Virus record (IMG/VR): IMGVR_UViG_2667527582_000001
Origin: a virus
Lineage: Duplodnaviria > Heunggongvirae > Uroviricota > Caudoviricetes
Strand: one strand, 5' to 3'
DNA: 16,984 nucleotides
Shown here: in pieces, positions 6,666 to 11,130 of the stretch
How the letters are laid out: every line of letters begins with the position of its first letter
Position numbering within the stretch: position 1 is the stretch's first letter
Position numbers and translations under genes: made by a program
The notes under the pieces: generated by a model
Told to the model about the DNA's origin: nothing
What the model saw: the letters and a program-made list of their open reading frames with translations, nothing else
Databases searched by the model: none

Positions 6666-7658
6666 TCACCCCCTGAATCCTGCCGGGATCTGGCTGTAGT
6701 CCACGTTGTCGTAACTGGATTTGAAATATGGGTCTTCGCGTTTTTCTGTGTATGTGCTGACGGACGGCGATAAGCGCAGGGAAAGCTCATCCCATTTTTC
6801 CCGCAGCTTCGACGGGCTGAGCACGTTACGGCACCAGAACGGATCGCGGCTGACGCGGCTGTACATCTCGCAGATTTGTTTGTGAGTACGACCATCCTGC
6901 ACACACATCAGGCGAATTTCGTTTGCCCAGGCTGTCCAGTTCGGTTCTTTGGGACGAACCACCTCGCCGTCACATTCGGCGGCCTGCTCGTACAGGGCGA
7001 TGATTTTTTTCCAGAGCCACTGTGCGCAGGTCAAATCATCCTGCGTTCCCCACTGGCGCTTTTTAGGGCTGAATACAACCGCATCAGGATGGCGAGTTAA
7101 AAACTCCTGTTCAGCCGTTTGCGTGTCCGGTTGCGAAGCGTCCGGACGAGAAGAGGTTTTATTCTCTGTAGTAATCTCTGTTGTATTCTCTGTAAGATCA
7201 TTGGGCCATTTTGACCCGATGACAGCGTGTCGTTTTGAACCAATGGATCGTGTCATTTTGCGCCCATCCATCAGGTCACTTTGACCCGATGGAGAAGTGC
7301 ATTTTGACCTGATGGATTCGTTCACTTTGACCTCTTCTAAAAGCTCACTTTCATAGTTGATCGTGTAGAAGTTGGTCATGTCACGCTTCGATTTATTGAG
7401 TTGCTCGCGACGCAAAACCCCAAGTGATTTCAGGCTTGCAAATGTGCGTTTCAGAGTGGACTCTGACCAGAACGGAAACTGCTCCAGCCACTGTTCTGTC
7501 GTGTTATAAACCCAGCGAATTCCGCCATGCTCAGTGCCTGAATTCGTTTCATTCAGCCAGTAATGAAGCTGCTGCAACACAATTGCCTCATTCAGACCAA
7601 TACGGCATGCAAGATCACGATTTATCACAATGGGCTGGGATGTCATTAACAGGCTCAT
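6666..7658 (-). CDS. Replication initiator (lambda O-like / replisome organiser), 330 aa, with the origin iterons inside its coding sequence
   Basis: Sits where lambda O sits (after cro/cII). N-terminus MSLLMTSQPIVINRDLACRIGLNEAIVLQQLHYWLNE...; iteron array falls in a low-complexity linker (residues ~108-150). GGAGGT SD; ATGA overlap with the upstream small ORF. Confidence 0.7.
   Translation of the reverse strand: MSLLMTSQPIVINRDLACRIGLNEAIVLQQLHYWLNETNSGTEHGGIRWVYNTTEQWLEQFPFWSESTLKRTFASLKSLGVLRREQLNKSKRDMTNFYTINYESELLEEVKVNESIRSKCTSPSGQSDLMDGRKMTRSIGSKRHAVIGSKWPNDLTENTTEITTENKTSSRPDASQPDTQTAEQEFLTRHPDAVVFSPKKRQWGTQDDLTCAQWLWKKIIALYEQAAECDGEVVRPKEPNWTAWANEIRLMCVQDGRTHKQICEMYSRVSRDPFWCRNVLSPSKLREKWDELSLRLSPSVSTYTEKREDPYFKSSYDNVDYSQIPAGFRG
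7158..7196. repeat. AT-rich segment with three TCTCTGT direct repeats next to the iterons (candidate DNA-unwinding region)
   Basis: attctctgta / atctctgttg / attctctgtaag in succession; lies on the downstream side of the iterons in the coding orientation, as the AT-rich region does in ori-lambda. Confidence 0.45.
7207..7338. repeat. Iteron array: six direct repeats (consensus about cAyTTTGACCyGATGG) at 23-24-bp spacing, putative phage replication origin
   Basis: cattttgacccgatg at 7207, cgttttgaaccaatgg at 7231, cattttg (degenerate) at 7254, cactttgacccgatgg at 7277, cattttgacctgatgg at 7300, cactttgacctc at 7323. Confidence 0.8.
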
Positions 7659-7879
7659 GCCGCACCTCCGAGATGCTTCATGTTTTTTCCGGAGCGAAAG
7701 GCTATAAGCGGCATACTGACGCGGTAATTACGGCCCAGCGGTTCACAAATCACCTTCTGACATTCACGGTCAACCAGGCTAACACGTAGAACATGCCCTG
7801 CAGGCGTGGTGTACCACTGACCGGGGCGAGGACAACGGAAAGTCTGATTGGTAAATCGTTTGAAAATATTCCGGATCAT
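7655..7879 (-). CDS. Hypothetical small protein, 74 aa, translationally coupled between the Rha-like and O-like genes
   Basis: ATG overlaps the Rha stop (ATGA) and its stop overlaps the O-like ATG (ATGA). No recognisable motif. Confidence 0.45.
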   Translation of the reverse strand: MIRNIFKRFTNQTFRCPRPGQWYTTPAGHVLRVSLVDRECQKVICEPLGRNYRVSMPLIAFRSGKNMKHLGGAA

Positions 7880-8421
7880 TTGCGCCCCCTTACCTCTGAA
7901 GAGTTCAGCGACGAATGAATAAGACGGGCAAGAAATGCCGCATCGTTAATTCGGTCATACAGACTTACAGCCAGAGGTGATTCAGCTTTTTCCAGCATGG
8001 GATAAAGCTGCTGCAACCAGACCTGATGAATTGATGAAATGTAGGAATAGAGAACGCTGGCGTTATGTGCAACGTCGCTCGGTACAGCGGGCTTTGAAAG
8101 CTGTTTCTCCATCTGGTTAAAGGCATTGATGTATGCCTCTTTGAACTGGGCAGCACGTTTACCCGTGAAACCCATAGCAAGAAACGCAAAGCCGTCGCGG
8201 GTTATTTGATAGCAAGGTAGTTTGCGGCCTGTGCAATCGGTGTAATCACTCACCGAAAAATTGCGGGCAGTGAATGATGCGGAACATTCAAGCGTGCGGA
8301 TCTTTTTCAGTACATCGTCATGACGTTTGGAGAAGAAGTTGGCAACAGCCAGGGATGAAGTAACAGCCTGACCATCAACGATGGCAATTTCAGGTTGAGT
8401 GAGGGTTGGGATCGTAGCCAT
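7876..8421 (-). CDS. Rha-family phage regulatory protein, 181 aa if started at the internal ATG
   Basis: MATIPTLTQPEIAIVDGQAVTSSLAVANFFSKRHDDVLKKIRTL...YQITRDGFAFLAMGFTGKRAAQFKEAYINAFNQME matches the Rha signature. ATG at 8421 has GGAG 9 nt upstream. The stop-to-stop ORF continues in frame to 9024, but that extension is low in charged residues and TTA-rich. Confidence 0.6.
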   Translation of the reverse strand: MATIPTLTQPEIAIVDGQAVTSSLAVANFFSKRHDDVLKKIRTLECSASFTARNFSVSDYTDCTGRKLPCYQITRDGFAFLAMGFTGKRAAQFKEAYINAFNQMEKQLSKPAVPSDVAHNASVLYSYISSIHQVWLQQLYPMLEKAESPLAVSLYDRINDAAFLARLIHSSLNSSEVRGRK

Positions 8422-9020
8422 GATGGCAGTCTCCGATAACAGTGAATTACCTTCACCACCGGAAACGCCAATTTCGCTGGTGGTGAACTGAACGGGGTTG
8501 GCGTAACCGGCGTTATCGGAAACCGGCGCACCTTTCGGTGCCCCCGTCCAGCCCACCATAATTTGGGTGTGCACAGACGCAGACGATAAAAAAGACGCTG
8601 GCGCGTCATATATCGCCGATAACATTTCCAGGACGCCAATCCCGACACCCGCTTTATAAGGTGCCTGAACAGTGTAACGTCCCGGAATGGCAGAATCAAT
8701 GTGCTGGTGGTCCTTCACACTCAACAAAATCACGCCTGAATTTCCACAAAGGACTAAAGCACTCATGCGGGTAGTCTTTGCGAAGATAGATAACGCGCTG
8801 TGTTTCTGGCTCCCAACGAATAACATGGACATAAAGCCCTCTTCCGTCACGAAACCAGCGGTTAAGTTCCTGCACAACTCGCCCCCCACAGTCAGGTAAA
8901 GTTCTCTGTGGTTACTTACAGCCAGGTGATTTGGTAATCTGCATTCATGCCGTAACAACAGGTGTTCAGCGACGCTGACCACCAGCTGTTGCGACAAACG
9001 GTTATTTGCCGTTAAACTGT

Positions 9021-9584
9021 TCATGCGTTAGTTTCTCCACAGACACAAAACGCCACGACGCCCGGAGCTGCACACTCGCGGGCGTCACTCTTTTCTGGAG
9101 CGCAAAAGATTTTGTAGACCAGTGCTGCATGCTCCTGGAGCTTCGAAATTGACAGATACAACTCATCATTAATTGCTGTCTGCTCGTGTGGCTCCACTAC
9201 CCCATCTTCGATTGCCGAACGAATCTGCTTTGAGTAACTCCCGATCTGTTCGATGACTTCCAGCAGGCGCTGGTTTATATCGGCGTTCTCTACTTCCTCA
9301 AGTTCAGGAAGCGATACAAACACCCCACCAGCAGACTGTGCGACAGCATCCGCAATGTAGTGAGTGCCAGCCGCGCGCTGTAAAATCATTGCCCATCCCA
9401 GCGGGAAAATCTGATCGCCATCTGCACGAAGGCGGTTGAATAAAGCGTTCTCTGTTACATCCAGCCACTCAGCAGCTTCAGCGTAACCTCCCGGCAACGC
9501 CGCGATAGTTTTTCTGACAGCTTTCACGTACCACTCAGGCTGTTTTTCTACTTTCCAGTGATGCTTACCCACGGTTAGCCTCAT
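9021..9584 (-). CDS. CII-like early regulatory protein (assigned by position and size only), 187 aa
   Basis: Follows cro in the cII position; stop overlaps the next ORF's ATG. Family assignment not verifiable by eye; weak SD. Confidence 0.4.
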   Translation of the reverse strand: MRLTVGKHHWKVEKQPEWYVKAVRKTIAALPGGYAEAAEWLDVTENALFNRLRADGDQIFPLGWAMILQRAAGTHYIADAVAQSAGGVFVSLPELEEVENADINQRLLEVIEQIGSYSKQIRSAIEDGVVEPHEQTAINDELYLSISKLQEHAALVYKIFCAPEKSDARECAAPGVVAFCVCGETNA

Positions 9585-9615: not shown

Positions 9616-9816
9616 TTAATCTTTCGGATAGATATCCGGTCTTAAGTCAGATTTCGTAATTGCACCTGACGTGCATTGCTCAAGTTTTTTAGCCAGCACA
9701 AAACTGGCTTTTTTATAACCATTGAAAACCAGCCGTAAGTAGCCTGGTGTTGAGCCAACTTTTCCGGCCAACTCGCCCTGCTGTTCTTTGGTTAAAGAGT
9801 CCCAATACGCTTTCAT
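9616..9816 (-). CDS. Cro-like HTH regulator, 66 aa
   Basis: MKAYWDSLTKEQQGELAGKVGSTPGYLRLVFNGYKKASFVLAKKLEQCTSGAITKSDLRPDIY has a Cro/YdaS-like HTH pattern. ATG at 9816 preceded by GGAGGT; divergent from the repressor gene across an operator-bearing intergenic region. The longer track ORF (to 10119) is an artefactual extension. Confidence 0.7.
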   Translation of the reverse strand: MKAYWDSLTKEQQGELAGKVGSTPGYLRLVFNGYKKASFVLAKKLEQCTSGAITKSDLRPDIYPKD

Positions 9817-9821
9817 ACAAT

Positions 9822-9840
9822 ATGTACCTCCGATATACAT
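9822..9840. promoter_or_regulatory. Operator-like 19-bp site 1 (ATGTACC-N5-ATATACAT), overlapping the cro SD and the putative PR -10
   Basis: atgtacctccgatatacat; shares the ATGTACC ... TACAT dyad with the sites at 9872 and 10626. Confidence 0.55.
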
Positions 9841-9866
9841 ATTACATGATTGAGATGAACCTTCAA
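9839..9866 (-). promoter_or_regulatory. Putative PR-like promoter for cro
   Basis: On the minus strand: TTGAAG (-35), 16-nt spacer, TAATAT (-10), about 20 nt before the cro SD. Assigned by eye. Confidence 0.4.
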
Positions 9867-9871
9867 GATAC

Positions 9872-9890
9872 TTGTACCCTATCGGTACAA
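9872..9890. promoter_or_regulatory. Operator-like 19-bp site 2, perfect dyad TTGTACC-CTATC-GGTACAA
   Basis: Perfect 7-bp inverted repeat around a 5-bp spacer, between the divergent cro and cI starts. Confidence 0.6.
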
Positions 9891-9900
9891 AGGTTTTAAT
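9872..9900 (+). promoter_or_regulatory. Putative PRM-like promoter for the repressor gene, predicting a leaderless mRNA
   Basis: TTGTAC (-35, inside operator site 2), 17-nt spacer, TTTAAT (-10) ending 6 nt before the repressor ATG at 9907. This puts the transcript start at or next to the ATG, as for lambda PRM. Confidence 0.35.
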
Positions 9901-9906
9901 TTCGTT

Positions 9907-10581
9907 ATGAAAACAGTCCATGACATCCGGCGGTCTAACGCCAGAAAACTGAGAGATGGTGTTGGCGGGAATTCTTCCTTTGCCACCATGATTGATCGCG
10001 AGCCAACCCAGACCAGCAGGTTTATGGGAGATGGTGCTACTAAAAATATCGGTGACAGCATGGCACGGCACATCGAAAAATGTTTCGACCTGCCTGTCGG
10101 ATGGCTTGATCAAGAACACCAGACAACAAACATCACAAAAAAACCTGATGTTTCAATTACTAACAAACAAATAACGTTAGTCCCTGTCATATCATGGGTA
10201 CAGGCCGGAGCATGGAAAGAAGTTGGCTATTCTGAGGTTGATTTGAGCACAGCAGAAACTTATCCCTGCCCTGTACCCTGTGGCGAAATGACTTATATCT
10301 TGCGGGTGATTGGTGATTCAATGATTGATGAGTACCGCCCGGGAGACATGATTTTTGTTGATCCTGAAGTCCCTGCCTGCCACGGTGACGACGTTATTGC
10401 ATTGATGCACGATACAGGCGAAACCACCTTCAAGCGGTTGATAGAAGATGGAACACAGCGTTACCTCAAAGCATTAAACCCAAACTGGCCTGAACCTTAC
10501 ATTAAGATCAACGGTAATTGCTCTATAATTGGTACAGTGATTTTCTCAGGAAAACCAAGAAGATACAAAATAAAGGCCTAA
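9907..10581 (+). CDS. CI-like prophage repressor: N-terminal HTH plus C-terminal S24 (LexA-like) autopeptidase domain, 224 aa
   Basis: C-terminal LRVIGDSMIDEYRPGDMIFVDPEV... is the S24 peptidase pattern (catalytic Ser in GDSM, a Lys further downstream). N-terminal region is HTH-like. Divergent from cro. Confidence 0.8.
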   Translation: MKTVHDIRRSNARKLRDGVGGNSSFATMIDREPTQTSRFMGDGATKNIGDSMARHIEKCFDLPVGWLDQEHQTTNITKKPDVSITNKQITLVPVISWVQAGAWKEVGYSEVDLSTAETYPCPVPCGEMTYILRVIGDSMIDEYRPGDMIFVDPEVPACHGDDVIALMHDTGETTFKRLIEDGTQRYLKALNPNWPEPYIKINGNCSIIGTVIFSGKPRRYKIKA

Positions 10582-10654: not shown

Positions 10655-11084
10655 AAAGAAACATAACACAGGCAAGATTAAACTAAATTTGGTTGTAACA
10701 CGGCGTATGGCACATGCGTCGTTAGCGGTCTGGGGACGTTAAAGGGGACAATCCACTCCTTGCTCGAGCAAACAAACCAGGTAGCCGGAATGTGCAAGTC
10801 AATGATGATGCTGATAAGACGCCTAACCAGCGTGGCGATTCGGTTTGACGCCTGGGAAGAGACCAGGGTGCAACGATGAGGGCATTTATGGAACCGCGAC
10901 AAAGTGTGGTGCCGTAACTGGCTAAGTGCTCTCAGCGTTGTGGTGAATGCGCAGGCTGATGCGCGAAAGACATTGCAGCTATTGCGGAAAAGAGCTGTTC
11001 GGCGGGGCAATTAAACGCCCGTGAGAGTCTGAAATAACCGCAAGCCGGAGATCAGCACCGGTCACCACAACAGCCACTGCTTTG
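10655..11084 (+). ncRNA. Long untranslated leader / candidate non-coding RNA transcribed from the PL-like promoter
   Basis: About 430 nt from the predicted start to a strong intrinsic terminator, relatively GC-rich, with no ORF of 60 aa or more on the plus strand and only short SD-less ORFs (11-29 aa). No N-like gene where lambda has N. Confidence 0.3.
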
Positions 11085-11130
11085 GCGGTACCAGTTTGTA
11101 CACTTGCTTCCGGCTGGTACCGCTCTTTTT
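11085..11130 (+). terminator. Intrinsic terminator inside the early-left leader
   Basis: Perfect 10-bp stem gcggtaccag (11085-11094) / ctggtaccgc (11114-11123), 19-nt loop, then TCTTTTT. Confidence 0.6.

Follow-up and report, generated by a model that had tools for sequence, protein, structure and literature searches.

A YmfM-type segment, a nested DUF4222 gene and an IsrK/C4 RNA cassette within a long open frame upstream of a prophage Rha gene

The stretch of DNA analysed here, referred to below as the window, is the 16,984-nucleotide (nt) Caudoviricetes record IMGVR_UViG_2667527582_000001. On its minus strand, a region of 603 bp (9024-8422) lies between ymfL, which encodes a CII-like regulator, and the gene of a Rha-family regulator, and is crossed by an open reading frame (ORF) of 382 codons (7876..9024, minus strand) that begins with ATG at 9024 and runs in frame into the Rha gene. 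A sequence-only reading of this DNA had found no convincing reading frame in the region and had offered a frameshifted or decayed gene, a missed small gene or an unusual N-terminal domain as explanations. Our analysis indicates, with good confidence, that the region consists of a YmfM-type N-terminal domain, a nested DUF4222 gene and an IsrK/C4 RNA switch, and that the 382-codon frame is mostly a translated bridge. The parts all belong to known families, namely C4, IsrK, DUF4222, YmfM and Rha. The IsrK/C4 cassette, which is the main content of the region, was missed by the sequence-only reading, and the reading of sequence alone could not reveal an RNA switch.

Two Rfam families were found in tandem on the minus strand. 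The upstream member is an IsrK-like RNA (RF01394, 8588..8664), equivalent to seqA of P4 and to a1/b1 of P1, which was matched over its full length with 61.5 bits against a gathering cutoff (GA) of 50. It carries the elements b1, TTGGCGT (8639-8633), and a1, GTTATCGG (8623-8616), and is ended by an intrinsic terminator with a hairpin at 8607-8594 and a T-run at 8593-8588, which an independent scan found as well. The downstream member is a C4-type antisense RNA (RF01695, 8476..8563; 82.8 bits, GA 45, model positions 1-87 of 87) whose predicted fold agrees with the structure of the family, with the loop element a', TCCGATAAC (8520-8512), and the single-stranded element b', ACGCCAA (8504-8498). 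A target region for C4 follows on the same strand (8431..8471) and is made up of b2, TTGGCGT (8471-8465), a box, GGTGGTGAA (8460-8452), and a2, GTTATCGGA (8440-8432). The a2 element overlaps the Shine-Dalgarno (SD) sequence GGAG (8434-8431), 9 nt upstream of the Rha ATG at 8421. The Rfam scan of the window also returned a sub-threshold match to the c4-a1b1 target motif.

The pairing elements proved to be fixed in position and variable in sequence. Exact complements of a' and b', 7-11 nt in length, were found at fixed distances in every cassette, their sequences differing from one cassette to the next; those of a' lie one ending about 10 nt before the conserved SD-ATG and one 60 nt upstream of C4, and those of b' precede the ATG by 44-45 nt and C4 by 76 nt. 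The a' allele, for example, is TCCGATAAC in the window, TCTTTGGTGA in mEp460 and TCTATGTTGA in ST64B. An alignment of 58 distinct cassette variants was used to analyse covariation against 500 shuffles and slid controls. For b1-b' together with a1-a', 93.2% of the cells were paired as against 59.2% in the shuffles, with 277 double-sided changes as against 80, while for a'-a2 together with b'-b2 the corresponding values were 82.8% against 58.0% and 229 against 78. None of the 500 shuffles reached the observed values for either pair set, and the slid controls were 30-49% paired. The minimum free energy fold of the read-through RNA (-114 kcal/mol, z = -5.5) likewise pairs a'/b' with a2/b2 in cis and closes the SD. 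Between b2 and a2, the near-invariant box (GGTGGTGAA / GGTGGTGA, 8452-8460) shows complementarity to the 3' strand of the stem that closes C4 (8487-8479). As both sides of this pairing are invariant, covariation cannot test it; the box might offer a competing pairing by which C4 is opened in cis, or it might serve in processing.

The IsrK and C4 tandem was present in every related Ash locus examined; it was seen in 12 related loci and in P4, occurs twice in one E. coli prophage, and is also found in VT2-Sakai, in PA2 and in Hafnia and Yersinia phages. In some prophages the IsrK-C4-Rha module is repeated in tandem, with two or three copies of differing a/b specificities (locus L011, 402-589 and 1247-1435; locus L159, with C4 matches at 9712-9792, 10368-10448 and 11024-11104; loci L138 and L139, two each), and such modules look, from their sequences, like an array of orthogonal RNA-controlled antirepressor genes. 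In the Yersinia phage vB_YpM_44 (L114:651-949), a full-length match to the ryfA RNA (134.6 bits) was seen on the opposite strand, about 1 kb upstream of IsrK-C4.

The cassette is headed by a putative promoter (8671..8699, minus strand) with a -35 element TTGATT (8699-8694), a 17-nt spacer and a -10 element TACACT (8676-8671), which implies a start at about 8664 and ends 7 nt before the 5' end of the Rfam IsrK match. In the 58 distinct cassettes the -10 element keeps A2 and T6 without exception, and TTGA of the -35 element hardly varies. The homologous PisrK promoter of Gifsy-1 has been used experimentally (PMC4825925). The peptide motif IDSAIPGRYTVQ, which appears to be the conserved N-terminus of the Ash family, is the translation of this same putative TTGATT-17-TACACT promoter.

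This brings us to the Ash domain (PF10554), which matches aa 117-212 of the long ORF with 63.2 bits against a cutoff of 26 (E = 3.6e-17) and would at first sight suggest a protein. Across 8706-8422 the ratio of non-synonymous to synonymous polymorphism (pN/pS) was 0.85, 0.89 and 0.95 in the three frames, and all of the conserved Ash residues map onto RNA or promoter elements. The cassettes of loci L111, L112 and L114 have stops in all frames, and when C4 cassettes were sampled without bias, in-frame stops stood 9-33 nt ahead of the regulated ATG in about half of them. In phage P4 (locus L315, NC_001609; 8168-8584 and 7888-8175), PF10554 matches aa 22-85 of the ORF of the old cI gene product, which lies over the CI RNA, and the epsilon antirepressor is PF25738 rather than PF10554. 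With no frame-specific selection, with cassettes that contain stops and with the P4 match falling on the cI ORF, the Ash model captures conservation at the level of RNA, and the Ash match is the translation of an RNA locus. The P4 match also rules out the Ash domain as proof of a protein extension. The GTG at 8718 (V103), which corresponds in position to the starts of Ash ORFs elsewhere, was considered as the start of an Ash-Rha protein, a question that is moot as the stretch is putative promoter and RNA. An Icd-like ORF was sought as well; the long ORF gave no match to the Icd family, and the other frames of 8350-8700 contain stops. As for the unusual N-terminal domain that had been envisaged for the extension, aa 104-201 correspond instead to a putative promoter, two RNA genes and their targets, with pN/pS of about 0.9 in all frames.

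The gene under putative control encodes a Rha-family regulator, a putative antirepressor of 181 aa read from the ATG at 8421 (7876..8421, minus strand; PF09669, E = 5e-31, 107.6 bits; TIGR02681, 103 bits), whose stop overlaps the ATG of the next ORF at 7879 and whose coding sequence has a pN/pS of 0.46. That Rha has its own ATG at 8421, preceded by GGAG 9 nt upstream, had been noted in the sequence-only reading and was corroborated here, the SD-ATG being kept in the 58 cassettes, including those with stops in every upstream frame; in VT2-Sakai the cassette is intergenic. A leader ORF of 46 codons, the equivalent of orf45 in Gifsy-1, begins with an AUG at 8559 in the 5' end of C4 (8422..8559, minus strand). 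As there is no stop between this AUG and the ATG at 8421, it is fused in frame to rha, and its region shows pN/pS of 0.81-1.15 in all frames.

Upstream of the cassette lies the 59-codon frame at 8696..8875 (minus strand; GTG start, TGA stop at 8696-8698), for which the suggestion of a missed small gene was borne out. Its product matches Pfam PF13973 (DUF4222) over aa 3-52 of 59 with 51.1 bits (cutoff 27) and phrog_1343 across its full length (E = 1e-36), and its GTG is preceded by an SD-like run, GGGGGG. We gathered 188 instances of the gene from Escherichia, Salmonella, Citrobacter, Enterobacter, Kluyvera, Buttiauxella, Kosakonia, Atlantibacter, Phytobacter and viral contigs, representing 88 distinct coding sequences, in which diversity at codon positions 1, 2 and 3 was 0.21, 0.15 and 0.48 and pN/pS was 0.23. 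The start codon was at a fixed position in these 88 sequences (ATG in 57, GTG in 28 and TTG in 3), and an SD-like motif preceded it in 96 of 99 loci. The frame is a protein-coding DUF4222 gene, which lies inside the ymfM reading frame but in a different phase. An AlphaFold2 model built from 18 homologues (predicted local distance difference test score, pLDDT, 84.8) confidently predicts a small five-stranded SH3/Tudor/KOW-like barrel with one helix. The Prokaryotic Genome Annotation Pipeline (PGAP) and RefSeq annotate the gene in some genomes and omit it in others with the same DNA, and our literature search returned nothing usable on the function of DUF4222 or on ribosome profiling of ymfM/DUF4222. 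An intact DUF4222 ORF was also noticed in E. coli K-12 MG1655 (L009:3502-3681; NC_000913.3, about 1,204,001-1,204,180), out of frame within ymfM (b1148). It has a TTG start with AAGGAG 8 nt upstream, lies in the -1 frame of the 112-codon ymfM ORF and is absent from the annotation of the K-12 reference record, while PGAP annotates the family in other E. coli genomes.

The long frame is itself coding at its beginning. The 50-codon segment at 8876..9024 (minus strand), the counterpart of the N-domain of e14 ymfM, starts with residues (MNSLT..) that align with K-12 ymfM and with other groups. In 40 distinct relatives, pN/pS over the upstream 48 codons or so was 0.37 in the ymfM frame; the other two frames gave 0.97 and 1.53 and carry about 2.6 stops each. 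Since this constraint is restricted to the ymfM frame, these codons are a real coding region. The statement that the region holds no convincing frame was correct as an observation, but 9024-8876, about a quarter of it, has a coding signature in the long frame of its relatives, and the region is not empty. The phrog_1170 match to the long ORF is limited to aa 48-98 (E = 7e-9), and the 50-codon N-domain of the window taken alone matched no PHROG or NCBIfam entry. A free-standing homologue of 59 aa is present in Hafnia phage yong2 (L113:820-999), where the short ymfM overlaps the CII stop (GTGA) and the start of the next gene; it confirms that the YmfM N-domain is an independent small protein. 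As the yong2 locus is without DUF4222, it further suggests that the short ymfM is the ancestral form and that DUF4222 was a later addition to it, or an overprint on it.

A different pattern was found where the ymfM frame continues over DUF4222 (8700..8874, minus strand, frame +1). Here the frame is open and without protein conservation, with a pN/pS of 1.43 that shows no protein-level constraint. It was nevertheless open in all 88 distinct sequences, while the +2 frame was closed in all 88 (1-7 stops each), and with the amino acid sequence of DUF4222 and the local codon usage as given, a +1 frame would be open with a probability of about 0.04 per sequence. In these stop-avoidance counts, which are phylogenetically non-independent, the third base was T or C in 349 of 349 four-fold codons at which a purine would create a +1 stop, as against a purine in 46% of the remaining four-fold codons of the gene. 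Codons 16 and 51 even change their usage according to whether the next codon makes them risky, and it is difficult to account for such a within-column contrast by anything but stop avoidance. In 70 of 70 non-fused loci the ymfM stop stands at +157 of DUF4222 and, in frame with it, the ATG of the next gene at +169. In the window and in loci L013, L004, L001 and L002 this stop is missing and the frame continues for about 1000 nt. In one locus an Ash-type ORF begins exactly at the canonical next-gene ATG after the ymfM stop, an arrangement that fits the idea of a coupled chain. At the other end of the frame, the TGA stop of ymfL (9021-9023) overlaps the ATG at 9024 as ATGA, and the junction GCATGA (9021-9026) is kept in 184 of 188 related loci. 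ATGA stop/start overlaps also join successive genes of the early-right operon (9021-9024, 7876-7879 and 7655-7658), and with the long frame read through, no untranslated gap is left between ymfL and the replication gene. We infer from this geometry that what is selected is not the tail peptide but an uninterrupted series of ORFs linked by translational coupling, the benefit being either the coupling itself or protection against polarity.

A working model can be put together from these parts. Translation would enter from ymfL through the ATGA overlap into the YmfM-type small-protein frame, and DUF4222 would be translated from its own SD and start inside the continuation of that frame. A promoter after the DUF4222 stop would start the IsrK-like RNA, which would offer the decoy sites a1/b1 and end at a leaky terminator, and read-through past this terminator would yield, presumably by RNA processing, the C4 antisense RNA. 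C4 would then pair through a'/b' with a2/b2 of the leader, where a2 covers the ribosome-binding site (RBS) of Rha, and would hold Rha translation off in the lysogen, with the IsrK-type RNA competing for C4 or for the leader. Selection would meanwhile keep the chain of ymfL, long ORF, orf74 and replication gene, joined by ATGA at each step, unbroken. It is possible, if rather doubtful, that the ymfM locus of the e14 family is a genuine pair of overlapping genes in which DUF4222, and not YmfM or not YmfM alone, causes the SulA-independent division block of the SfiC type, that the 3' half of ymfM is a bridge, and that in the window this bridge gives a C4-independent route to Rha whenever the early operon is transcribed.

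The arrangement resembles known immunity systems in several respects. The immI region of P1 and P7 also has a C4-family RNA whose a'/b' have upstream (a1/b1) and downstream (a2/b2) targets on one transcript, the downstream target lying on the RBS ahead of an antirepressor-type gene, and matched specificities that vary among phages. In contrast to P1, the window lacks a separate icd ORF; it is the RBS of the Rha gene itself that would be masked, and the leader ORF starts inside C4 and runs in frame into this gene; the regulated protein is of the Rha family and not P1 Ant, and the cassette lies inside a lambdoid early-right operon. Processing by RNase P and Rho-dependent termination are known for P1. 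In P4, the immunity region (seqA, CI RNA, seqC) likewise gives an IsrK match (60.8 bits, seqA) followed by a C4 match (74.9 bits), and PF10554 matches both aa 117-212 of the window's ORF and the P4 cI ORF over the CI RNA; the difference is that no Rha gene lies downstream. The P4 CI RNA works chiefly by ending transcription of the replication operon prematurely (PMC4825925), and the position of a2 on the SD in the window points, unlike P4, to translational control.

The isrK-orf45-anrP locus of Gifsy-1 is similar in layout as well. Published work on it describes a promoter, a leaky terminator and a leader ORF that is translated and coupled to the antirepressor, orf45 starting at nt 107 of the isrK transcript and being conserved in its nucleotides while variable in its amino acids, and also a processed RNA of about 80 nt that the authors likened to P4 CI (PMC4825925). 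The window shares with it the order of promoter (putative in the window), 77-nt IsrK, leader ORF over an RNA of about 80 nt and antirepressor, as well as a read-through transcript that is translationally closed. It differs in that orf45 ends at an AUGA overlap with anrP whereas its 46-codon equivalent is fused to rha, in that the open frame reaches further upstream, across IsrK, the promoter and DUF4222, and in that the Gifsy-1 locus stands beside antQ in the late region whereas the cassette of the window follows ymfL/DUF4222 in the early region. Further upstream, ymfM of e14 in K-12 has the same position after ymfL, the same ATGA overlap and MNSLT.. start, and a nested DUF4222 in the -1 frame; its stop at +157 of DUF4222, 9 nt before the next gene, is absent from the window, and the N-domain of the window is a shorter variant of 50 codons. 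K-12 ymfM is now labelled cell division inhibitor YmfM (SfiC), and inhibition of the FtsZ ring with filamentation was shown only for a clone of the K-12 ORF, a clone that also carries codons 1-53 of DUF4222. The published work used a library clone (ymfL'-ymfM-ymfN'), the ORF in pBAD24 and a whole-gene deletion, and since these constructs include the DUF4222 sequence, YmfM and DUF4222 cannot be told apart as the division blocker.

Several observations weigh against the reading as a YmfM segment, a nested gene and an RNA switch. The promoter of the window matches the consensus at only 8 of 12 positions, which is why a sigma-70 consensus scanner made no call there, so that the assignment rests on conservation and the Gifsy-1 precedent. 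The model put forward for Gifsy-1 has IsrK activating translation via orf45, and not C4 blocking the antirepressor RBS (PMC4825925). Coupling or anti-polarity as the reason for the open frame derives from geometry. In the MATIPT class of Rha the whole-cassette frame is open in about 95% of variants, and in L011a and L113 compensating indels of lengths other than multiples of three keep it open; with the frame so preserved, an N-terminally extended Rha, even the 382-aa product, may come from read-through transcripts, and extended Rha made from early-promoter transcripts may bypass C4 control. These last points lead to the reading of the 382-aa ORF as one real protein, a YmfM-N/Ash/Rha fusion whose odd composition would reflect an unusual N-terminal domain. 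Such a fusion is annotated in cdtI, mEp460, ST64B and many RefSeq genomes, and the frame is intact over its full length in cdtI, mEp460, phiSTEC1575, ST64B (76% nt identity) and Citrobacter braakii; through the cassette the long frame is open in 59 of 85 distinct variants as against 18 and 3 for the other frames, stops are avoided over DUF4222, the Ash match has an E of 3.6e-17 and the Gifsy-1 leader ORF across C4 is translated. We consider it improbable all the same, because the middle 150 codons are without protein-level selection (1.43 over DUF4222, and 0.85 over the cassette, as in the other frames) and because the ORF holds two RNA genes together with an intrinsic terminator and a conserved putative promoter. 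The conserved Ash residues map to RNA or promoter elements and the Ash model derives from the P4 cI ORF; moreover, about half of the unbiased cassettes are stopped 9-33 nt before the ATG, and e14-type frames stop at +157. The sequence-only reading had taken homologues in which the 382-aa fusion is conserved to show that the long ORF is real, and the fusion is indeed conserved in cdtI, mEp460, ST64B and C. braakii, but the lack of protein selection in its middle deprives this of its force.

The other alternatives concern the part upstream of the cassette or the region as a whole. DUF4222 might be the sole gene in 9024-8696, the ymfM frame being a chance ORF and the published phenotype due entirely to DUF4222, as the ymfM tail lacks protein conservation and the published constructs and deletions all contain codons 1-53 of DUF4222 or the whole ORF. 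This is very unlikely in view of the pN/pS of 0.37 over the upstream 48 codons in the ymfM frame only, the free-standing yong2 homologue without DUF4222, the ymfL overlap (184/188) and the stop avoidance (88/88). A programmed -1 frameshift fusing the YmfM N-domain and DUF4222 into one protein of about 110 aa would agree with the -1 position of DUF4222 relative to ymfM, with purifying selection on both halves and with the G-run before the DUF4222 start. Yet no slippery heptamer X XXY YYZ occurs within 30 nt on either side of that start in 99 loci, DUF4222 has its own start at a fixed position with an SD in 96 of these 99, the G-run is not conserved in other groups, and the 157 nt of open ymfM frame past the junction would be left unexplained, all of which makes frameshifting extremely unlikely. 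The frameshifted or decaying gene of the sequence-only reading, a pseudogene remnant with the DUF4222-like frame as a broken piece, would account for the uneven PGAP annotation and for the fact that codon usage and composition are poor in the long frame. Every layer of the region is, on the contrary, conserved and under selection: DUF4222 is intact, with a pN/pS of 0.23 in 88 variants from at least eight genera, the RNA cassette shows compensatory covariation, and near-identical sequence is present in hundreds of genomes, functional phages among them, so that we give decay a practically negligible chance. An assembly error, also raised earlier, is excluded by identity of at least 99% over the 603-bp region in 207 complete E. 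coli genome records. The region was present at a coverage of at least 80% in 678 genomes, and also in functional phages.

The surroundings of the region are those of an early-right operon of a lambdoid prophage of the e14/SfV/cdtI/mEp460 type, which occupies the minus strand from about 10100 to 6600 in the order cro-like gene, ymfL, 382-codon ORF, 74-codon ORF and replication gene. A LexA/CI-type repressor gene (9907-10581, plus strand) faces this operon. The CII-like (CP76) regulator gene ymfL (9021..9584, minus strand) matches PF06892 (E = 5e-15) and the NCBIfam YmfL equivalog (168 bits); the names ymfK, ymfT and ymfL are those that RefSeq gives in E. coli prophages nearly identical to this one and in e14 of K-12. 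A GTG ORF of 167 codons (9616-10119, minus strand) over-extends the cro-like gene, since the ymfT-type gene annotated by RefSeq in near-identical prophages is only 201 nt, and the upstream part of the GTG ORF extends over the divergent repressor gene and the operator region. The ORFs that the sequence-only reading had listed were found where it had placed them, namely the 382-aa ORF, the GTG frame of 59 codons with the translation it had quoted and a 70-aa plus-strand ORF (8687..8899) that shadows the DUF4222 frame. The unusual composition it described also held, charged residues making up 13% of aa 1-201 of the long ORF as against 20-27% in Rha, ymfL and the replication gene, and TTA/AGA/AGG/GGG codons 8.5% as against 1.1-3.7%. 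The long ORF is not, as had been stated, the only long one, as a 130-aa ORF with a TTG start (8307..8699, minus strand) crosses part of the region in the +1 frame across the RNA cassette. It has no family match, and with the same frame open in only 18 of 85 cassette variants it is probably a chance ORF in GC-rich structured sequence. Database matches to 9024-8422 were seen to break at query positions of about 384 and 325, that is at 8641 inside IsrK and at 8700 at the DUF4222 stop, two points at which C4 specificity alleles and entire cassettes are apparently exchanged by recombination.

What is new here is, in the first place, a widespread misannotation. In hundreds of E. coli, Shigella and Salmonella prophages this segment is annotated in three incompatible ways, as a 382-aa Rha family protein, as an ash family protein or as DUF4222 with a truncated Rha, and the two RNA genes are almost never annotated. 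What has spread widely as a protein annotation is a translated RNA locus, apparently passed on by the Pfam Ash model. A survey of P4-like satellites (bioRxiv 10.1101/2021.03.30.437493) uses PF10554 as the marker of epsilon; as PF10554 matches the P4 cI ORF and not epsilon, the matches in that survey may track the RNA immunity locus. New as well are an open frame that is selected without selection on its peptide, and the overlap of ymfM and DUF4222, which the published ymfM experiments left unseparated. The gene named as the long-sought division inhibitor SfiC contains a second, better-conserved gene in another frame, and this casts doubt on the identity of SfiC. As the switch would control an antirepressor-type gene in an immunity region, it is relevant to prophage induction, and the many matched a/b alleles, including those in tandem modules, suggest RNA-based immunity types that decide the cross-induction of co-resident prophages.

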